A DNA stretch of 64,000 bases from Candidatus Magasanikbacteria bacterium GW2011_GWC2_37_14. Its GTDB lineage: Bacteria; Patescibacteriota; Patescibacteriia; Magasanikbacterales; UBA922. Made by a program: the position numbers and the translations under genes. This document shows positions 1,675 through 64,000 of the stretch, piece by piece (position 1 is the stretch's first letter; every line of letters begins with the position of its first letter). Where the stretch lies: NCBI GenBank assembly GCA_000990355.1, contig LBSX01000008.1, forward strand, positions 40,316 to 104,315, read 5' to 3'. Below the pieces are notes generated by a model. The model did no database searches. It had not been told where the DNA came from and worked only from the letters and a program-made list of their open reading frames with translations.

Positions 1675-4098
1675 ATGTTTTTATGCTTTAATGTTTTAAT
1701 GAATATGGGCAGACGTCGTTTAGAACCAGTTTACAATCCGCCAATTACCCGCGGAATTATTGCTATTCTTTTAGTTGTTTTGGCAATAATTATTACTTTA
1801 AGTTTTTTTAACAAAGCCGGAGTAGTAGGAGAAATTTTAAATAATTATGTTTTGAGTTTTTTGTTTGGCTCCATGCGCTTTATCACCCCAGTCATGATTA
1901 TTATTTTAGCTTGGTTTTTAATTAAAGACACAGAATACGATTACCGCTCTACACATGGCATTGGTTCTTTATTATTTTTCTTGGCTAGCTCTAGTTTAAT
2001 GCATCTTGGTTTTGCCACTAGTGAAATGTGGAACAAAGTGTTAATGATGGGACAAGGTGGGGGAATTTTTGGCATGCTTGCCTGGCCACTAAAAACTTAC
2101 TTGGGTAATGTCGCCAGTATAGTTTTGCTTATTGGTATTATCTTAATTTCTGTTTTTTTAATTTTCAACACAGCTTTTATTCATTTTGTACAATTAAACA
2201 AAAAACTTTTTTCTGGCTTGGGATTTTTGGGCAAAAGTTTACTTGGTCTTACTGGACTTTTTGTAAAAGAAAATCAACCAACTCTAAATTTAAAAAATAA
2301 TTATAATAAAGAAGAGGAAGAGGAGGAAGAAGAATACGAAGATGAAGAAAACGATGAAGAAGTTAATTTGGATCAAGAAGAAGATATAGGCAGTAGAAAA
2401 TTTCAAACCAAAAAAGTAAAAACCGAAACCGACGATGAAGAAGAAGACGATAGTGAAGATGACGACGACCCTTCGGCTAACGCTCAGGGCAAGTCAAAAA
2501 TTCCTTCGGCTTGGGACAAAAAAATAATTGTTAAAGATTTACCAGAATTAAATTTACTAACTACCAAAAAATCCAAACCTACTAGTGGCGACATCGAAGC
2601 CAATGCTGCAACTATAAAAAATACTTTGCATGAATTTGGTATTGATGTAGATATGGGCGAAGTTCGCGTTGGGCCAACGGTTACTCAATATTCTTTTAAA
2701 CCAGCCAAGGGTGTAAAACTTACTCGCATTACCACTTTAAGCAACGACTTATCTTTGGCTTTGGCTGCCCACCCAATTAGAATAGAAGCACCAATCCCAG
2801 GACAATCTTTGGTAGGTATAGAAGTACCAAATACCAAAGTAGCCATGGTAACTATAAAAGAATTAATTGAAAGTGAAGAATTTAAACACCGCCCTCACAA
2901 CATGATGATTGCTTTGGGTAAAGATGTGGCTGGTAAAGTTTGGTTTGCTGACTTACCAAAAATGCCTCACTTATTAGTTGCCGGTGCCACTGGATCTGGC
3001 AAAACTGTTTGTATCAACACTATTATCATGAGTTTGCTGTACCAAAATACTGCCGAAACTTTGCGGATGATTATGGTTGACCCCAAACGTGTAGAATTAA
3101 CTTTATACAACGGTATCCCACATTTATTAACACCGGTAATTACCAATGTCCAAAAAACTGTAAATGCTCTAAAATGGACCATTGGCGAAATGGATCGCCG
3201 TTTTGATGTTTTGGCTGCTCATGGTTGTCGTGATATCGGCTCTTACAATACTCGCTATCCAAAGGAAAAAATGCCCAACATTGTTTTTATTATTGATGAA
3301 TTGGCTGACTTAATGGCCGCAGCGGCAAGCGAAGTAGAAGCAGGAATTATTCGCTTAGCCCAAATGTCTCGCGCCATTGGTATCCATTTGGTGGTGGCTA
3401 CCCAAAGACCTAGTGTGGATATTATTACTGGCTTAATGAAAGCCAACATTCCTGCACGTATTGCTTTTTCTGTCGCTTCAATCATGGATTCACGGACAAT
3501 TTTGGACTGCCCAGGTGCCGACAAACTATTGGGTCGTGGTGATATGTTATATTTAACTGCCGAACTTTCCAAACCAAAACGTATCCAAGGTGCTTTTATT
3601 TCCGAAGAAGAAGTTGGCAATGTTGTGGAATATTTAAAAGAAGACGGTGAAGCTGAGTATGATTCCTCTATTATCGAAAAACCCACCAGTGGTACGGTAA
3701 ATATGTTTGGTGGAGCGAGTGATGATCAAGATCCACTGTTCAATGAAGCCCGTGAAGAAATAATTAAAGCTGGCAAAGCTAGTGCTTCATTTTTACAACG
3801 ACGCTTTAAAGTTGGTTATGCTCGAGCGGCCAGAATACTAGATGAATTAGAAGCTGCTGGAGTAATTGGCCCTGGCGAAGGAGCCAAAGCTCGTGAAATT
3901 TTGGCCACAGCAGTTCCCGAAACCATGAATGCTGGTGGAGAATTAAATGTTTTTGATAGTGTAGAAAAAGAAATTGAAGAGGAAGAGGAAATTGATGATG
4001 AAGAATCGTCCTCCGCCAAGGCTTCGGACGACACGGATGTTGAGGAGGAAAGCGAGGAAGAGAAAACAGAAGAGGAAAATACTGTTGAAAAATATTAA
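1675..4098 (+). CDS. ftsK: DNA translocase FtsK/SpoIIIE
   Basis: N-terminal TM segments, Walker A GATGSGKT, Walker B IIDELADLM, ATQRPSVD, and a C-terminal gamma winged-helix (RRFKVGYARAARILDELE). Two poly-acidic low-complexity linkers. Start could be the ATG at 1699 or 1705. Confidence 0.92.
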   Translation: MFLCFNVLMNMGRRRLEPVYNPPITRGIIAILLVVLAIIITLSFFNKAGVVGEILNNYVLSFLFGSMRFITPVMIIILAWFLIKDTEYDYRSTHGIGSLLFFLASSSLMHLGFATSEMWNKVLMMGQGGGIFGMLAWPLKTYLGNVASIVLLIGIILISVFLIFNTAFIHFVQLNKKLFSGLGFLGKSLLGLTGLFVKENQPTLNLKNNYNKEEEEEEEEYEDEENDEEVNLDQEEDIGSRKFQTKKVKTETDDEEEDDSEDDDDPSANAQGKSKIPSAWDKKIIVKDLPELNLLTTKKSKPTSGDIEANAATIKNTLHEFGIDVDMGEVRVGPTVTQYSFKPAKGVKLTRITTLSNDLSLALAAHPIRIEAPIPGQSLVGIEVPNTKVAMVTIKELIESEEFKHRPHNMMIALGKDVAGKVWFADLPKMPHLLVAGATGSGKTVCINTIIMSLLYQNTAETLRMIMVDPKRVELTLYNGIPHLLTPVITNVQKTVNALKWTIGEMDRRFDVLAAHGCRDIGSYNTRYPKEKMPNIVFIIDELADLMAAAASEVEAGIIRLAQMSRAIGIHLVVATQRPSVDIITGLMKANIPARIAFSVASIMDSRTILDCPGADKLLGRGDMLYLTAELSKPKRIQGAFISEEEVGNVVEYLKEDGEAEYDSSIIEKPTSGTVNMFGGASDDQDPLFNEAREEIIKAGKASASFLQRRFKVGYARAARILDELEAAGVIGPGEGAKAREILATAVPETMNAGGELNVFDSVEKEIEEEEEIDDEESSSAKASDDTDVEEESEEEKTEEENTVEKY

Positions 4099-4103
4099 AG
4101 AAT

Positions 4104-4190
4104 TTCCCTCCCCTTTATAAGGGGAGGGCAGGGAGGGGTATTAAACACCTACCCCCTCTTAATCTCCCCCTTATAAATGGGGAGAAAACC
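4104..4190. repeat. GC-rich palindromic repeat cluster (family A: C4-5 TTwwAA G4-5 hairpins)
   Basis: ccctcccctttataaggggagggcagggaggggta ... ctcccccttataaatggggag. The same unit recurs at 8950, 12205, 13150, 16480, 51900, 56316, 62150 and 62518. Confidence 0.8.
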
Positions 4191-4195
4191 ACCTT

Positions 4196-4888
4196 ATGAA
4201 TGCTTTTTTTTGCAAAAAACTAAATACTCCACCAAAGAGAGTTTGTTTGCGTCTAAAAGAATTGCGCGAAGAAAAAAAAATAACTTTAATAGAATTAGCT
4301 AATAAAACAAAAATCGATAAAAAATATTTAGAAGCTTTGGAAAAATGCCAGTTTGAAAAATTACCCAAAGCCTTGGTCTACCAAAAAAATATTGTCCGTC
4401 GTTATGTAGAAACTTTGGGATTAAAGCCCGATTCTTTTTTGGAACAATACTTAATTGAAGAAACCCACAAACAAAAAATCAAACATCCTCACACCGCTTT
4501 AAAAAATAATTATTGGAATCATTTACCAACATTTTTACGTTATGGCTTTTTAGCAATAATAATTTTAGCTATTGTATTTTATTTAGGCTGGCAAGTTAAA
4601 AATATTATTAAACCACCAAAATTAATTATTTATTCTCCAATCGAGGGCTATATTACCGAAAATGACCAACTACTCTTGGTTGGTGAAACCGAAAGAGAAG
4701 CCAAAGTAACGGTAAATGGCAAAGACATAAAAAATAATGAAAATGGACAATTTAAAGAAACAATTAATTTATCGGCTGGAATAAATACCATTACCATTAC
4801 CACCCAAAAAAAACACGGCAAAACTACCACCCAAGTTCGTCATATTGTTTACCGACCAATAGTTATTAACACCCAAAATAACAATTGA
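4196..4888 (+). CDS. HTH (XRE-like) plus single TM plus extracytoplasmic domain; RodZ-like cytoskeleton/morphogenesis protein
   Basis: N-terminal HTH (RLKELREEKKITLIELANKTKI), central TM (FLAIIILAIVFYLGW) and a C-terminal beta-rich domain, which is the RodZ architecture. Confidence 0.55.
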   Translation: MNAFFCKKLNTPPKRVCLRLKELREEKKITLIELANKTKIDKKYLEALEKCQFEKLPKALVYQKNIVRRYVETLGLKPDSFLEQYLIEETHKQKIKHPHTALKNNYWNHLPTFLRYGFLAIIILAIVFYLGWQVKNIIKPPKLIIYSPIEGYITENDQLLLVGETEREAKVTVNGKDIKNNENGQFKETINLSAGINTITITTQKKHGKTTTQVRHIVYRPIVINTQNNN

Positions 4889-39153: not shown

Positions 39154-39909
39154 ATGAATAATAAAATTGATAAAATATATTTTGATTTTGATAGCACCCT
39201 AATTAAGGCGGAAAGCTTGGATTTGTTGGGAATAAGGCGAGGGGTAGGAAAAAATGTTTCTGCTATGACAAAACGTTCAATGAACGGCGAAGTGGCATTC
39301 TCTGATATTTTTTTAGAAAAAATGCAATTAATTTCTCCGACAAAAAATGATCTCGATGTTGTAGCACAAGAGTGTGTTGGTTTGTTGGTAGCTGGTGTGC
39401 TGGAAACAATGAAATTATTGCGTGCTTTGGATAAGCAGGTATATATTCTGTCAGCTAATTTTTATCCAATGATTTTGCCGGTGGCGAAAAAACTTGGGTT
39501 AGACGAGAATAACATTATTGCCAATGAGATATTTTTTGATGGGGATGAAAATTTTTTGAATTTTAATACTAGTTCGTTGTTGGCTCAGGATTATGGCAAA
39601 GCAAGAGTGTTACAGCAAGAAAAACAAAAAGGTGGAAGATTAGCATTGGTAGGAGATAGTGTAGCCGACTTGGAGGCAGCAAGTGAGGTGGATGTTTTTG
39701 TTGGTTTTGGTGGAGTTGTACAACGAGAAAAAGTATTTAAGGAGTCAAAACATTTTGTTTCCTCACCATCATTATTGCCATCTTTAAATTTCTTGTTATC
39801 GGATGATGAGATAAATAAATTGAAAATTATTGGTTTTGAAAAAATAGTAAATGAAATTCAAAAATTGACTACCATTACTACAACCGGGACAGGGCCGGTT
39901 GCTTGGTAG
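39154..39909 (+). CDS. HAD-superfamily hydrolase (phosphoserine phosphatase-like)
   Basis: Motif I FDFDSTL and motif IV GDSVADLEA. The C-terminal tail runs into the GC-rich block. Confidence 0.7.
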   Translation: MNNKIDKIYFDFDSTLIKAESLDLLGIRRGVGKNVSAMTKRSMNGEVAFSDIFLEKMQLISPTKNDLDVVAQECVGLLVAGVLETMKLLRALDKQVYILSANFYPMILPVAKKLGLDENNIIANEIFFDGDENFLNFNTSSLLAQDYGKARVLQQEKQKGGRLALVGDSVADLEAASEVDVFVGFGGVVQREKVFKESKHFVSSPSLLPSLNFLLSDDEINKLKIIGFEKIVNEIQKLTTITTTGTGPVAW

Positions 39910-39983
39910 TGGTATTAGTTTTTGAACAAAATACTCGCCAAGGCTGGCGGGTATTTTTGTTTAAAAAAGCGGGAGGAGGAAAT

Positions 39984-41297
39984 ATGCGAGAGGGTGCGTT
40001 GCTTTTGCCTGAGTTTAGTTCGTTGTATCGATTTCGTGAGCCAGACGTGAGGCAGTATCAACAGCAGAAGGGAGTGGAACAGATCAAGCAGGAGAATGAT
40101 CTGTTTACAGACCCAATTAATGGATGTGATTGTGTCTTTACCTCTCACCGAATTGGAACAGTGCTTGTGGCGCCACGATCTCAGTGTTTGACGCGTTTTC
40201 CTGGGCACAGCTTGCCTGGTCCTGGTGGTAATTGCCAGATTAACACCGGAGCTTTGGAGTGGAATCGTTTTCAGGAACTCGCCAAATTCGCAGGGATTCC
40301 AGTGCTCGGAGATTGTCAGTTGGTATCGACGGTAGCAGAGCCGAAATTGCCGTCGTGGGATTGGTTGGGTGTGGCTGAGCCGGATATATTTGTCTTGAGT
40401 CCCATCATTGTCCAAACGTTGCCGTGGGGTGAGGCTGAATGGCAGATGTATGTTGAAGGGTTGCGACATAGTCTGCGTCAGGTGCACAATTGTAGCATGG
40501 CGAAGATTCTGTCGTTGGCACGCCAGGCTTGGGACCAACACGGTAAAATGATCTATGACAGCGATGCACTCCTGTGGGCAGAGAAAATTATGTGCGTCGT
40601 GGGCAAAGAGAATTGTGATTTGAATGCGATTTTCGAGTTGGAAGCGGCGGTTAGCTGTCGACAGTACTCTCGCGATCTCCGTATTCATAGTCGGGGTGTT
40701 TACCGCGGCATGTGGATCGAGGTTGGAGAAGTTGGACTCGCTTCCATCAAGGCAACGGAGTTGGTTATGCCAGTGCGTATTATTCAAGAGCTCCAGAGTC
40801 TGTACAAGAACGGTTTTGCTCCCATCGTGGTGAATGAGTATGGGTGCAATACGGATGGTAGTCATCGTCATACGACTGCCTGGCTCTGGAATTTGCTCAA
40901 GGCTATTGGATCGTTCAATTCGGGAGTGCTCCAATCGCGTGTCACCGAATTCGTCGTGAAGCATTGTCTGGCCATGGGTCCGATCATCACCCGTGAAGTA
41001 TTGCGTGTGTTGTCCGAATTGTTGGCTAATCACCGCCAACTCTTGTTCGAAGAAATCATGCCACAAGTGCAGAGATATAATCCGATTGCTACTTTGCCGG
41101 TCATACTGCTCAATGAGTATTCGGCTGGCACGGTTGTGAAGAAGGAATATGATGAAGGCACGGCAGTGCGGCGTGTTGATCCTGAGACGTATCGGTTGCT
41201 TGCCAATAACCCTTCCTTCACCCTTCCGGCACGTGGTCCCTATCACCGTACGGACCGATCGATCCTTCCCTGGTTTCAAATTCTGGAAAAGGAGTAG
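39984..41297 (+). CDS. Unknown 437-aa protein encoded on a GC-rich (about 52%) island with atypical codon usage
   Basis: Strong RBS GGAGGAGG-4-ATG. The plus-strand translation is complex and protein-like, with conserved Cys/His clusters (CDC, NEYGCNTDGSHRH). The equal-length minus-strand ORF is low-complexity R/S-rich and judged to be a shadow. Confidence 0.55.
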   Translation: MREGALLLPEFSSLYRFREPDVRQYQQQKGVEQIKQENDLFTDPINGCDCVFTSHRIGTVLVAPRSQCLTRFPGHSLPGPGGNCQINTGALEWNRFQELAKFAGIPVLGDCQLVSTVAEPKLPSWDWLGVAEPDIFVLSPIIVQTLPWGEAEWQMYVEGLRHSLRQVHNCSMAKILSLARQAWDQHGKMIYDSDALLWAEKIMCVVGKENCDLNAIFELEAAVSCRQYSRDLRIHSRGVYRGMWIEVGEVGLASIKATELVMPVRIIQELQSLYKNGFAPIVVNEYGCNTDGSHRHTTAWLWNLLKAIGSFNSGVLQSRVTEFVVKHCLAMGPIITREVLRVLSELLANHRQLLFEEIMPQVQRYNPIATLPVILLNEYSAGTVVKKEYDEGTAVRRVDPETYRLLANNPSFTLPARGPYHRTDRSILPWFQILEKE

Positions 41298-41481
41298 GTG
41301 TTCTTTCTTGGCCTGTCCCTCGGCTATTCAATAGAGGTGATAGTGAGCCGGCATTTTCTCCGGCAATTCACTTTGTCGACAAACAAAACTAAATAACTAC
41401 TGTTTTATTGCAGTAGTTTTTAGTTGACCTTTTCGATTATTTGTAGTTTAATATTGGTATTCACATAATGCTTATGTGTTC

Positions 41482-42144
41482 ATGAAACCTTTAAATAAAG
41501 TTAAAATAGAATGGTCGCCAAAATTTGCGTATGCTATTGGTTTGATAGTGACTGATGGAAATTTATCTGGTGATGGAAGACATATTTCTTTCACTTCAAA
41601 AGACTATGATTTAGCATTTTTATACAAGGAATGTCTTGAATTAGATAATATTGTTGGTAAAAAATCTAGAGTGGCCGGTGCAGAAAAAATATACAGTATA
41701 GTTCAGTTTGGCGATGTAAGTTTTTATAAATTTTTATTGTCCATCGGGTTAACACCAAACAAATCAAAAACTATTGGCAAACTTAAAGTACCAAGAAAAT
41801 ATTTTTATCACTTTTTGCGTGGTTGTTTTGATGGAGATGGTAATATAAATGAGTTTAAACATCGAGAAAGTCAACACACACAGTTAAGAGTTAGATTTTT
41901 TTCTGCAAGTAAGAAGTTTGTTGATTGGCTAAGGGGAAATACTATTAAAAATGGGATAAAAGGCTATTATGGAAGTGTAGGGAAAAAGAAAAGTGTTTAT
42001 GTTTTGGAATTTGCTAAAGCCGATTCAATAAAGTTATTAAACTTGATTTATAAAGAAAATTGTGGTATCTTCTTAGAAAGAAAGTATTTAGTAGCTAAAA
42101 AATATTTGCTGGCGTGGCGGAATTGGTATACGCGCTTGCCTTAG
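41482..42144 (+). CDS. LAGLIDADG-family homing endonuclease (two-motif, monomeric type)
   Basis: Motif 1 FAYAIGLIVTDGNLS and motif 2 FLRGCFDGDGNIN. Start taken as the ATG at 41482. The 3' end overlaps tRNA-Leu by 37 nt. Confidence 0.8.
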   Translation: MKPLNKVKIEWSPKFAYAIGLIVTDGNLSGDGRHISFTSKDYDLAFLYKECLELDNIVGKKSRVAGAEKIYSIVQFGDVSFYKFLLSIGLTPNKSKTIGKLKVPRKYFYHFLRGCFDGDGNINEFKHRESQHTQLRVRFFSASKKFVDWLRGNTIKNGIKGYYGSVGKKKSVYVLEFAKADSIKLLNLIYKENCGIFLERKYLVAKKYLLAWRNWYTRLP

Positions 42145-42191
42145 AAGCATGTTCCCGAAAGGGATTGAGAGTTCGAGTCTCTCCGCCAGCA
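42108..42191 (+). tRNA. tRNA-Leu (anticodon TAG), class II with a long variable arm
   Basis: Hand-folded: acceptor GCTGGCG/CGCCAGC, D-loop with GG, anticodon loop CTTAGAA, variable arm CCC-GAAA-GGG, T-arm GAGAG-TTCGAGT-CTCTC, discriminator A. Confidence 0.75.
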
Positions 42192-42194
42192 CAC

Positions 42195-42461
42195 ATGAAT
42201 AACTTAGAAGCTAAAATCTTTGCCGCTGAATTGGGTGCAGAAATGCCCGAATTAGATTTACATGGATTTTATCCAAATGAAGCCCTAGAAAAACTAGAGG
42301 TTTTTTTATTTAAAAACTCGCAAAATAAGGAGCAGATGGTTAGAGTAATTTATGGCTTTGGCACGGGAAAATTGGCTAATGAAGTTTTGAATTATTTAAA
42401 AAAACACACGTTGGTTGAAGCTGTTATAGAAAAAGAAGGAAGTTGTATTGTAGTTCTTTAA
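42195..42461 (+). CDS. Smr-domain protein (small MutS-related nicking endonuclease domain)
   Basis: LDLHG ... VIYGFGTGKL Smr motifs. Start set to the ATG at 42195, right after the tRNA. Confidence 0.7.
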   Translation: MNNLEAKIFAAELGAEMPELDLHGFYPNEALEKLEVFLFKNSQNKEQMVRVIYGFGTGKLANEVLNYLKKHTLVEAVIEKEGSCIVVL

Positions 42462-42486
42462 TTTTGCTGATTTATTCAAAATAGCC

Positions 42487-42515
42487 TTGACAAAAGGCTG
42501 TTTTTTTATTATAAT
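42487..42515 (+). promoter_or_regulatory. Sigma70-like promoter TTGACA-17-TATAAT
   Basis: ccttgacaaaaggctgtttttttattataatc, upstream of the ATP-grasp gene. Confidence 0.65.
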
Positions 42516-48409: not shown

Positions 48410-51690
<3,281 letters not shown>

Positions 51691-61778: not shown

Positions 61779-62147
61779 ATGTTAATAAAAAAATTTGCCA
61801 ATCAAAAAGAAATTATTGCTGGAGACAATTGTCTTTTAAGGGAGTTTATTAACGTGGAACATGGTGATAAAGTAGACTGTCGTTATAGTTTGGCTTGGTC
61901 CAAGATGCCTGTTACAAAAAAAACCTGGAAGCACACCATGAAAACTTCGGAAGTATATTTTATTTTAAAAGGCAAAGGCAAAATGTATATAAATGATGAA
62001 GCAGAAGAGGTTGGTGTATATGATACAGTTTATATTCCACCTAATGCTACTCAATATATAGAAAATATTGGTGAAGAAGATTTAGAATTTATTTGTATTG
62101 TTGACCCGGCTTGGAGAAAAGAAGACGAAGTTGTTTTGGAGAGTTAG
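61779..62147 (+). CDS. Cupin-domain protein
   Basis: Cupin motifs 1 and 2 (G(X)5HXH-like region ...KHTMKTSEVYFILKGKGKM... and a PPNATQYIEN region), 122 aa. Confidence 0.55.
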   Translation: MLIKKFANQKEIIAGDNCLLREFINVEHGDKVDCRYSLAWSKMPVTKKTWKHTMKTSEVYFILKGKGKMYINDEAEEVGVYDTVYIPPNATQYIENIGEEDLEFICIVDPAWRKEDEVVLES

Positions 62148-62149
62148 GC

Positions 62150-62290
62150 CGTCATCCCCCTCTTGACCTCGAGGGGGTAGGCCTGCCCGACATGCCGTCA
62201 AGGCAGGCGGGGGGAGTTTGCCGGAGCTGTTTGTCATTCCTGTCCCGTAACCTGGTACGGGATAAACTCCGGCAGGAATCCAGAAATCGT
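62150..62290. repeat. Family A plus family B palindromic repeats
   Basis: ccccctcttgacctcgagggggtaggcctgcc...ggcaggcggggggag, and gtcattcctgtcccgtaacctggtacgggataaactccggcaggaatcc. Confidence 0.75.
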
Positions 62291-62563
62291 CTAATAAAAT
62301 CAAAACTACTTTTCAGTAGTTTTTGTTTTATATTCATTTTACTTTTTGTCACCAAAAAGTAACAAAAAGTGCCGGGGTAAAAAACTCGCGCCTTCAACTA
62401 AAGATTAAAGTATTATCTATTCAAGCCCTGGGCGCTCAAACAGTTTTACCCCTGGACCCCAGGTTTTTTCTGTGGTGTGTAAATGTTTGTGCGCGCGTGA
62501 TTGAGTGTTTCTTTTTCCTCCCCTTTATAAGGGGAGGATTAAGGAGGGGTATTTTACAAACAA

Positions 62564-62665
62564 AAAATCCCCCAGCTCCACTACGTTGCGCCGGGCAGGC
62601 TAGTAAACTTTATTAAAAAGATAGTCTAGCTTGCCAGGCGCAGTGAAACGGAGACTGGGGATTTT
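62564..62665. repeat. Family C 95-nt long-hairpin element, copy 2
   Basis: cccccagctccactacgttgcgccgggcaggctagtaaactttattaaaaagatagtctagcttgccaggcgcagtgaaacggagactgggg. One mismatch relative to copy 1. Confidence 0.85.
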
Positions 62666-62820
62666 TTATTTTCAACTATTTACAAAATAATTTTATAAAC
62701 ACTTGAGTCACCCTTGGTCCTCCAAGGCCAAGGTGCTCCTTCTTGTGAAAGGAAAAGATCGATAAAGAATGTGGGTTTTTTGCCCCGGAGCTGGGGCGGG
62801 TGGTGGGGTGGGGTAGCAGT

Positions 62821-63879
62821 TTAGCGGGGCTCCGGCGTGGTGGGGATGTCGCCACCGCTGAAGAACTTGTTCGGGTCGGCGAGCATCGCCTGGGTCGGTG
62901 GCGTTGTGGGGTGAAGTTCGTACTCCACCACGACCTCATTGCCGACGCGTTTCCAGGTGATGTGTCTCTTGTCCAGGACGTGGTTCACGGCGAAGGGGAA
63001 CTTCGGGTTCATCCACACCATCACCTCGTCGCCCTCCTTGAGCTGCTCGCCCCGTTCGCCCGGCTTGTGGATGTAGACGACTGTCGACATGCTCGGCATG
63101 TTCACCACGGCCACCAGGCGTTCCGTGCTCTCGATGGTGCGGGCCTGGAGCTTGATGAAGCACCAGCCCGCGTCTTCCATGCGACGGCGGAGGGACATGT
63201 ACCAGCTCACCTGGTGGACGTTCGACGGCCACTCCACGAAGTCGTTCTGGAGCGGCAACATCTCGAATTTCGGCGGGAACCGGTAGGGCTCTCCACCCAG
63301 CATGGCCCAGCGCAGGGCGCAGGGTATGGTGAGCGGGTAGTTCCTGGACCAGAGGTGCCGTCGGAAGCATTCCTTCTTGCTTCCGTCGCCGTCGGCCAGA
63401 CCCTTGAGTCCCTGGACGATCAGGGGGATCGTCCGCCAGGTGGGCACGAGGCGGAGCGAGAGCCCCACCTGAAGGCTCTGGGGCAGGTTGAGACGACGGA
63501 GAACTTCGATCGTTTGCGAGTTGACGACGCTCTCCAACCGATCCACCGCCCGGATGGCGATCGGCCAGGCATCGTGGTTGCCCAGCGAGGCGCGGATGTG
63601 CTCATAGATGATGAGCACCTTCTCGGGCTGTACCGAGGCGATCTCGAGGAGCATGTGCACCAGGTCGGAAAAACCGAATTTGGCCCAGGCCAGCGCGTTT
63701 TCCAGGAAGGCGCGCTGGAACTCGCGGCAGCAGGGCTCGTCGCCGAGACACGCCCTTCTGATCGTTTCGTCGTTCGCACCCGCTTCGATCAGCCAGCTGA
63801 AGACCTGGTGGATGTCCATCCCTTCTTCGGTCTCGAGCTTGGCCCACATCTCGCGCAGGAGCTCGGGCTGGATGGCCAT
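62821..63879 (-). CDS. Unknown 352-aa protein on a high-GC (about 62%) island
   Basis: RBS GAGGAGG-5-ATG on the minus strand. The translation is complex and W/R-rich. All plus-strand ORFs in this block are Arg/His/Gly-rich antisense shadows. Confidence 0.55.
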   Translation of the reverse strand: MAIQPELLREMWAKLETEEGMDIHQVFSWLIEAGANDETIRRACLGDEPCCREFQRAFLENALAWAKFGFSDLVHMLLEIASVQPEKVLIIYEHIRASLGNHDAWPIAIRAVDRLESVVNSQTIEVLRRLNLPQSLQVGLSLRLVPTWRTIPLIVQGLKGLADGDGSKKECFRRHLWSRNYPLTIPCALRWAMLGGEPYRFPPKFEMLPLQNDFVEWPSNVHQVSWYMSLRRRMEDAGWCFIKLQARTIESTERLVAVVNMPSMSTVVYIHKPGERGEQLKEGDEVMVWMNPKFPFAVNHVLDKRHITWKRVGNEVVVEYELHPTTPPTQAMLADPNKFFSGGDIPTTPEPR

Positions 63880-64000
63880 GTTGGCCTCCTCTCAGCAACC
63901 AAGGGCTTCTGTTCCCAGGGTTGCAAAGCAAAAATTGAGCAGTCGGACACCCTTGTGCCAACCGCAGGTTCTTTAACTAAACGTTATTTTCGCAAATAAC

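Follow-up and report, generated by a model that had tools for sequence, protein, structure and literature searches.

How a gene for a LAGLIDADG homing endonuclease comes to lie outside any intron or intein and to end inside a tRNA gene is the question raised by a 64-kilobase (kb) stretch of the genome of Candidatus Magasanikbacteria GW2011_GWC2_37_14, a member of the Patescibacteria or Candidate Phyla Radiation (CPR), which is referred to here, over its whole length, as the window. Its assignment to this organism is based on a protein, P0001, of 100 % identity. To our knowledge, free-standing LAGLIDADG enzymes have rarely been described in bacterial chromosomes. The original prediction took this gene for the remnant of a mobile insertion beside a tRNA gene or, alternatively, for an endonuclease servicing an intron in the 23S rRNA gene that has no open reading frame (ORF) of its own. 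Our analysis indicates that the gene is on balance probably an intact member of a family of free-standing homing endonucleases whose niche is the 5′ leader of tRNA-Leu(UAG). This family, which is apparently undescribed, is large and Patescibacteria-wide, and consists of stand-alone LAGLIDADG genes, each placed directly before a tRNA-Leu gene and in most cases extending into it.

The endonuclease gene and its tRNA

The endonuclease ORF occupies positions 41482-42144 of the forward strand and encodes a single-chain, double-motif protein of 220 amino acids (aa), starting with ATG at 41482 (an alternative GTG is available at 41476) and ending with TAG at 42142-42144. The tRNA-Leu(UAG) gene, on the same strand at 42108-42191 (or 42192), was called complete and uninterrupted by ARAGORN and Rfam (57 bits against a gathering score of 29), with its CCA not encoded. 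These calls bear out the predicted overlap of 37 nucleotides (nt) between the end of the ORF and a contiguous tRNA gene: the final 12 codons and the stop are made up of tRNA sequence, and the conserved portion of the protein extends to about residue 209, precisely up to the start of the tRNA. The gene had also been described as free-standing, and so it is. It does not belong to the intron- or intein-encoded type, given a contiguous tRNA, an ATG of its own behind a promoter and the lack of an extein, and an Rfam scan of the region returned no intron family match around the ORF or the tRNA. The 64-kb window contains neither a second copy of either tRNA half nor att-like repeats, so that a split tRNA, or an endonuclease housed in a tRNA intron, can be ruled out. 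The ORF has a GC content of 29.2 %, which makes it 8 points more AT-rich than the window as a whole (37.6 %). The coincidence of its stop codon with the tRNA anticodon was rejected as a meaningful feature; it recurs in one of 80 related loci (L002) and is a consequence of the reading frame.

The protein has two matches to Pfam LAGLIDADG_3 (E 1.1e-10; 42 bits against a cutoff of 22.5), and its motifs, AIGLIVTDG (D25) and LRGCFDGDG (D119), both carry an acidic residue at motif position 8, which confirms the claim of an intact double-motif enzyme and not a pseudogene. Both residues are invariant, among 44 invariant positions overall, in a 20-sequence alignment of homologues 52-79 % identical to the window protein. 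The AlphaFold model (predicted local distance difference test, pLDDT, 85; predicted template-modelling score, pTM, 0.85) has the fold expected of a single-chain LAGLIDADG enzyme, alpha-beta-beta-alpha-beta-beta-alpha twice over, and its sole disordered part is the tRNA-encoded tail at residues 214-220. The closest solved structure is I-Tsp061I (2dch; hmmsearch 2.2e-10, Foldseek 9e-11), followed by I-DmoI and intein endonuclease domains, and Foldseek assigned a probability of 1.0 to the matches with I-Tsp061I, I-DmoI, PI-SceI and I-AniI. Like the family, I-Tsp061I, I-DmoI and the intein domains are two-domain monomers of similar size with both motifs acidic, but they are just 14-21 % identical to the window protein and reside inside self-splicing introns or inteins, whereas the window enzyme lies outside such elements, with RNase P proposed below as their equivalent. 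No NCBIfam model was found for the family, whose members appear in databases as 'intein-containing protein', 'hypothetical' or, generically, 'LAGLIDADG family homing endonuclease'. A phage origin was rejected, phage homologues being just 25-34 % identical.

Homologues of the window protein form 3351 clusters at 90 % identity (E ≤ 1e-3) and 301 clusters at 50 % identity (E ≤ 1e-30). The genomic context of the family was studied in 80 genome loci taken from one-genome-per-species contigs, with labels that include Magasanik-, Staskawicz-, Yanofsky-, Nomura-, Kaiser-, Wolfe-, Jorgensen-, Harrison-, Gribaldo-, Lipton-, Curtiss- and Doudnabacteria, among others. All 80 have a tRNA-Leu(NAG) gene or fragment beside the homologous ORF, an adjacency that, recurring in as many independent loci, is beyond chance. 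The tRNA-Leu gene lies directly 3′ of the ORF and on the same strand, at a gap of -59 to +72 nt, in 73 loci, where the anticodon is UAG in 61, GAG in 11 and AAG in one. Three further loci, which form one clade in the tree, have an adjoining but inverted tRNA-Leu(UAG); in L038, from Magasanikbacteria, the tRNA is just upstream of the ORF and an Smr-domain gene downstream; one locus has a tRNA-Leu-like sequence without a T arm, one has its tRNA cut by the contig end, and another (L070) breaks off within the ORF at the contig end and has a tRNA-Leu(UAG) ~300 nt upstream. Linkage to the tRNA is thus tight in any orientation, and the tRNA locus is the putative target of the enzyme.

The junction between both genes is equally well defined. 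The codons of the conserved C-terminal helix (RKYxxAKxYL) finish exactly at tRNA +1, and the ORF stop falls within the tRNA in 69 of 92 distinct canonical loci (~75 %), coinciding with tRNA nt 8-10 in 37 of those 69. The same ORF unit was seen in about 150 loci from many Patescibacteria lineages, and what is conserved is a single ORF of ~640 nt together with a promoter, the ORF being inserted between promoter and tRNA. The window copy is an ordinary member of this family, and its overlap with the tRNA is the family's normal state.

Many taxon labels of TPA_asm records look unreliable and were not used as evidence. Suspect labels include those of L017, L004, L077 and many 'uncultured Candidatus Saccharibacteria' TPA_asm records; L017, for one, is labelled Gammaproteobacteria although its PNPase and that of the Magasanikbacteria window share 67 % identity. 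The record labelled Armatimonadota (L028) contains, at ~2389-2460, a tRNA-Leu(UAG)-like sequence after the ORF that lacks a T arm and was not called by ARAGORN.

The family has diversified along with its tRNA partners. In a neighbour-joining (NJ) tree, ORFs beside tRNA-Leu(GAG) or tRNA-Leu(AAG) constitute one clade, apart from the UAG ORFs, and Kaiserbacteria hold members of both the UAG and the GAG clades. The N-terminal domain is conserved between these clades, whereas the beta-hairpin of the C-terminal domain (~121-140) is wholly different and exists in two versions, each conserved within its clade (...DGDG.I....HPES...Q.r.r... and ...DGDGtfYSYwDpRWksSMFY...). Such beta-hairpins read DNA in LAGLIDADG enzymes. 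Because one domain is conserved and the hairpin of the other remodelled, the comparison suggests that the targets of both clades share one half-site and differ in the other, as the genes of two tRNA-Leu isoacceptors would.

A second, more distant LAGLIDADG_3 family (~242 aa, 699 clusters) displays the order infB-rbfA-ORF-tRNA-Cys(GCA) in six of six loci (L148, 136-951; L158-L162, ~1501-2232, with tRNA-Cys at ~2203-2286), its ORF overlapping the tRNA by 18-86 nt and following a -10-like hexamer located ~6 nt before the ATG. The extension of a LAGLIDADG ORF into a tRNA 5′ end is therefore a solution met more than once, and no accident of a single locus. A degenerate copy of this second family, apparently without the second motif, was observed on the reverse strand of L003 (4119-4748), where it starts at the 3′ end of a tRNA-Leu(UAA) gene (4701-4784); the same locus also has an intact gene linked to tRNA-Leu(UAG).

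Transcription, loss and possible recombination

In the window, a terminator-like hairpin with a 9-base-pair (bp) stem and a T-run (41395-41418, forward strand) ends the transcription unit of an upstream GC-rich gene and marks the left boundary of the module; a second terminator-like hairpin precedes it at 41347-41364. A promoter-like element, TTGACC-N17-TTTAAT, follows on the forward strand at 41424-41452, 29 nt upstream of the ATG. This element was read from the sequence and is putative, a consensus scanner having missed it because its second hexamer has no A at position 2; it is homologous to a TTGACA-N17-TACAAT element in L001, and the 'attggtattcac' that follows is common to both. No terminator was found in the window between the ORF and the tRNA, or anywhere before a terminator-like hairpin on the forward strand at 42478-42504, which closes the unit. 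Endonuclease, tRNA and a downstream Smr-domain gene hence look like one transcription unit, in which the Smr gene is probably co-transcribed. The perfect TTGACA-N17-TATAAT promoter of the next gene (42487-42515, forward strand) overlaps this last terminator.

The promoter arrangement can be quantified across the family. Defining a sigma-70-like site by at least 9 of 12 matches and using 640 other genes of the same contigs as controls, we found that 68 of 93 distinct loci have such a site no more than 100 nt before the start codon, against 17 % of controls, and that in 43 of the 93 a -10 hexamer ends 5-9 nt before the ATG, against 4.1 % of controls. A -10 hexamer that close to the start codon implies, as a rule of thumb for bacterial promoters, a leaderless mRNA, and in most copies the ORF looks like a leaderless mRNA that doubles as the 5′ leader of the pre-tRNA. 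The simplest reading of these sequence features is one primary transcript that would run from the ATG through the endonuclease straight into the tRNA. Few loci have promoter-like sites in the final 70 nt of the ORF (14 % versus 2-3 %), and with so weak an enrichment an internal tRNA promoter was not adopted as a general rule. The Magasanikbacteria copies (the window and L001) have their promoter 24-29 nt upstream and hence a short leader.

To sample the locus without bias towards the endonuclease, metagenome contigs were scanned with a 27-nt 5′ segment of the common Paceibacteria-type tRNA-Leu(UAG). A full ORF abutted the tRNA in 36 of the sampled contigs, while six retained a 3′ remnant only, of 14 to ~95 codons and always directly against the tRNA; ~29, each with 650 nt or more of upstream sequence, lacked the ORF, and four were too short to score. 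Empty and occupied alleles share the tRNA cluster Cys-Leu(UAA)-Lys(CUU)-[ORF]-Leu(UAG), in which the ORF is an indel, and three exact 83-nt tRNA sequences were found both with and without it. Similarity to the final ~30 nt of the ORF persists in certain 'empty' leaders (L149 and perhaps also L131 and L114), which makes these leaders deletion derivatives. This pattern of gain, decay and loss is that expected of a homing endonuclease gene. The notion of a mobile insertion remnant beside a tRNA is supported in its first part, the mobile and selfish nature of the gene, and fails in its second, the unit being a single ORF and not what is left of a larger insertion.

Where the gene is present, it is kept intact. 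About 100 of 102 ORFs are full-length with both acidic residues, the exceptions being L074, truncated at its N-terminus, and L126, with a premature stop. The ratio of nonsynonymous to synonymous divergence (dN/dS) is 0.03-0.15 in ~60 pairs, and the least saturated of them, L083/L095, has a dN of 0.031 and a dS of 0.49; the function of the gene is maintained, under purifying selection. The in-frame stop of L126, which comes from a metagenome contig, occurs after 51 codons and the rest of the sequence aligns at 75 %, making it a candidate for a fresh pseudogene or a sequencing error.

Identity between ORFs tracks identity between their flanks (r = 0.93), the ORF being on average 4 points higher. 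The pair L083/L095 is an outlier, with 90 % identity in the ORF against 70 % in the flanks, and a sliding comparison confines identity of 94-100 % to the 3′ half of the ORF and the tRNA, the rest ranging from 50 to 75 %. Between the empty locus L131 and the occupied L082, 954 identical nt extend up to the end of tRNA-Leu(UAA); past this point both differ by an inverted tRNA-Lys and the ORF, the tRNA-Leu(UAG) is identical, and identity is 92-94 % further on. The tracts of both pairs look like recombination centred on the junction between ORF and tRNA.

Some loci also show rearranged tRNA-Leu genes. In L122 (~4077-4199) and L135 (~3988-4110), with the tRNA on the forward strand, a complete tRNA-Leu(UAG) of one sequence type (GCTGGGG...) is preceded, at a distance of 13 nt, by a 5′ fragment of at least 27 nt from a tRNA-Leu(UAG) of a different type (GGGCGAG...), an arrangement that looks like the scar of a tRNA gene replacement with its breakpoint near tRNA position 27. 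L117, L094 and L070 each have a tRNA-Lys(CUU) between two different tRNA-Leu(UAG) genes in opposite orientation; the endonuclease gene abuts just one of the two in L117, is missing from L094, and is present in L070, in the ORF of which the contig ends.

The pre-tRNA leader as a proposed niche

Under the reading we favour, a promoter beside the start codon would drive a single transcript of the endonuclease ORF followed by the tRNA, as an mRNA that would be leaderless in most relatives of the window copy. RNase P removes any 5′ leader from a pre-tRNA, and an ORF located in the leader would for this reason be tolerated as it is in an intron or intein. By cutting at the 5′ end of the tRNA, RNase P would allow it to mature whatever lies upstream, at little cost to the host, and would play the role that self-splicing has for endonucleases borne by introns and inteins. 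The protein would cut tRNA-Leu loci without the gene, at a site likely to span the leader/tRNA junction or to take in a portion of the tRNA gene, and recombinational repair would copy the endonuclease gene, often along with the adjacent tRNA, into the cut locus (intronless homing), with the flanking tRNA genes possibly acting as homology arms conserved across species. Copies that no longer spread would decay from their 5′ side, leaving a short 3′ remnant as the tRNA leader.

A broader proposition can be put forward only tentatively: that the pre-tRNA 5′ leader is a third self-removing safe harbour for homing endonuclease genes, beside introns and inteins, with a leaderless ORF, a non-stop message, at least three lineages and an arms race as its elements. 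Speculatively, with the stop codon inside the tRNA, processing would leave a non-stop message and thereby keep endonuclease levels low. At least three lineages, associated with tRNA-Leu(UAG), tRNA-Leu(GAG) and tRNA-Cys, may have used the leader niche across Patescibacteria, and an arms race with tRNA-gene alleles may explain the duplicated, fragmentary and replaced tRNA-Leu genes at these loci.

The closest experimentally studied analogue is SegB of phage T4, a free-standing GIY-YIG homing endonuclease encoded in the phage tRNA gene cluster; its site, 27 bp long, includes a tRNA gene's conserved T-psi-C motif, and the enzyme drives the inheritance of its own gene and of the neighbouring tRNA region (PMC2330249). 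SegB resembles the family in being free-standing, in its location among tRNA genes and in being missing at the same place in related genomes. It differs in its superfamily and as a phage gene, where the family is LAGLIDADG, cellular and chromosomal; no tRNA 5′ end is fused to the segB ORF, no leaderless ORF-tRNA transcript is known for it, and the family, unlike SegB, is phylum-wide, with lineages specific for particular tRNAs. Closer in host are the LAGLIDADG genes, such as that of I-ShaI, carried by rRNA insertions in CPR bacteria (PMC11270868), with which the family has in common the phylum, the superfamily, its patchy distribution and its residence at a conserved RNA gene. Most enzymes of the I-ShaI type are single-motif LAGLIDADG_1 homodimers encoded within group I introns of 23S or 16S genes, whereas the family consists of double-motif LAGLIDADG_3 monomers encoded upstream of a tRNA. 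Group I introns have also been reported in Patescibacteria tRNAs (PMC13011429).

Several observations weigh against the reading of a selfish gene that homes into the tRNA leader. Purifying selection at the dN/dS values given above is unusually strong for a selfish endonuclease; the window and L001 are 63 % identical in the endonuclease at the aa level and 66 % in PNPase, a matched divergence; and the NJ tree roughly follows taxonomy. All three also fit long vertical inheritance of a host-useful gene with repeated loss. The occurrence of identical tRNAs with and without the ORF implies that self-immunity cannot rest on changes inside the tRNA, and immunity through tRNA-internal substitutions was rejected for same-type alleles. 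No clear 22-bp target was readable in the leaders of alleles without the gene, which are not conserved and in some cases are deletion remnants. With its promoter 29 nt from the ATG, the window copy is not leaderless, and, since the ORF is intact in the three loci whose tRNA is inverted, co-transcription is not obligatory. Finally, the near-identical tracts of L083/L095 and L131/L082 come from metagenome contigs and could be assembly chimeras.

One alternative is that of a domesticated LAGLIDADG protein, inherited vertically and beneficial to the host as a sequence-specific DNA-binding or nicking factor at the tRNA-Leu locus, for instance in its regulation or maintenance, yet dispensable and lost in some lineages. 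We regard this as unlikely, although it would account for the low dN/dS, for a family 45-63 % identical across many candidate phyla with a divergence resembling that of the neighbouring PNPase and Smr genes, for the correlation between ORF and flank identity, for the grouping of Magasanik-, Staskawicz- and Nomurabacteria in the NJ tree and for the fact that every clear loss seen is a deletion. WhiA, a bacterial LAGLIDADG protein, provides a precedent (PMC3984707) and shares with the family a chromosomal location, vertical inheritance and a strongly conserved fold. It lacks the catalytic residues, however, and has a C-terminal helix-turn-helix (HTH) domain (summarised in PMC3984707), whereas the family keeps both catalytic acidic residues and is polymorphic in its presence, and the window protein stops at its second LAGLIDADG domain, with no HTH or WhiA match in Pfam. 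Domestication is further countered by the absence or decay of the gene in about half of the contigs with the same, and even an identical, tRNA, by sister lineages on other tRNAs (GAG, Cys) and a remodelled DNA-binding half, by the local tracts of near-identity and by the AT-rich composition of the ORF relative to the window.

Free-standing homing endonucleases being already known, what appears to be new here is the precisely defined tRNA-leader niche, together with the proposed transcript architecture; a search of 8 million full texts found no description of a free-standing LAGLIDADG family at tRNA 5′ ends. A large family with a precise and repeated genomic address, and with a plausible reason for its tolerance, suggests that such selfish genes can reside safely just ahead of a tRNA. 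Were RNase P to replace splicing, this would constitute a new way for selfish nucleases to live inside the transcription units of conserved genes, and the leader niche may help explain their persistence in the very small genomes of Patescibacteria. Compact monomers of ~208 aa, with many natural variants and one recognition half apparently swapped between clades, also offer material for meganuclease engineering. In current annotation, genes of the family carry the labels 'intein-containing protein' or 'hypothetical', with 3′ ends that are mis-called into tRNAs.

Neighbouring genes and the 23S insert

The original prediction had placed a small Smr-domain gene directly downstream of the tRNA and a GC-rich gene upstream, and both were recovered at those locations. 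The former, at 42195-42461 on the forward strand, encodes a stand-alone protein of 88 aa (Pfam Smr E 1.1e-12; 48.3 bits against a cutoff of 25.7) that resembles the C-terminal domains of MutS2 and SmrB. Its ATG lies 3 nt past the tRNA discriminator base (spacer and ATG at window 42192-42197) and has no Shine-Dalgarno sequence; processing of the tRNA 3′ end would leave an almost leaderless Smr mRNA in the window. The spacing is not conserved, amounting to 60 nt in L001. A search with tblastn and a custom hidden Markov model detected Smr beside the endonuclease in four of 155 loci (L001, L038, L007 and L004), two of them labelled Magasanikbacteria, and a role as functional partner was rejected on this count.

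The GC-rich gene (39984-41297), with 50.3 % GC where the window averages 37.6 %, comes from a rare but genuine protein family (24 clusters, 437-462 aa), and its product has no match in Pfam, NCBIfam, PADLOC or PHROG. Within 39154-41297 it follows a HAD hydrolase gene (35 % GC), with which it is always paired. The closest relative of the pair, in L156, is 86 % identical to the window in HAD and 83 % in the GC-rich gene, with PNPase just 63 % identical, and is followed by unrelated genes and two tRNA-Gly genes, without endonuclease, tRNA-Leu or Smr. Because the pair is so much closer to L156 than the adjacent PNPase, the comparison suggests a recent horizontal transfer of HAD and GC-rich gene. 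The antisense strand of the GC-rich gene holds an ORF of 454 aa, probably a by-product of its composition.

That endonuclease, Smr and GC-rich gene are the remnant of one foreign island beside a tRNA is highly improbable. The foreign composition of the GC-rich gene (50 % against 37.6 %) and the general role of tRNA genes as classic integration sites speak for it, but the 64-kb window, besides lacking att-like repeats of tRNA ends, contains no integrase, and the synteny comparison contradicts an island. Not one of the 80 genome loci of the endonuclease has the GC-rich gene, the pairing of this gene with HAD exists without the endonuclease in L156, which led us to reject it as part of the element, and L001 keeps PNPase, endonuclease, tRNA and Smr syntenic with the window in the absence of the GC-rich gene. 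With Smr limited to the four loci above, the proposed grouping of the three genes into one unit does not hold.

The 23S gene of the window measures 3288 nt against a model length of 2925 and contains, at 50983-51295, a group I-like insert without an ORF (41.6 bits, below the gathering score of 50). The idea that the endonuclease services this intron in trans, as endonuclease or maturase (collaborative homing), can draw on the insert itself, on collaborative homing in cyanophage psbA as cited in PMC3984707 and on Foldseek matches to the bI3 and I-AniI maturases, but is very unlikely to be right: a 23S gene is in reach in just one of 155 other loci (L038), the conserved partner being always the tRNA, CPR 23S introns encode LAGLIDADG_1, with LAGLIDADG_3 only in 16S insertions (PMC11270868), and the linkage between endonuclease and target that trans-homing requires is absent here. 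At the far end of the window (62001-64000), GC content climbs to 47 % and then to 61.5 %, against the average of 37.6 %.

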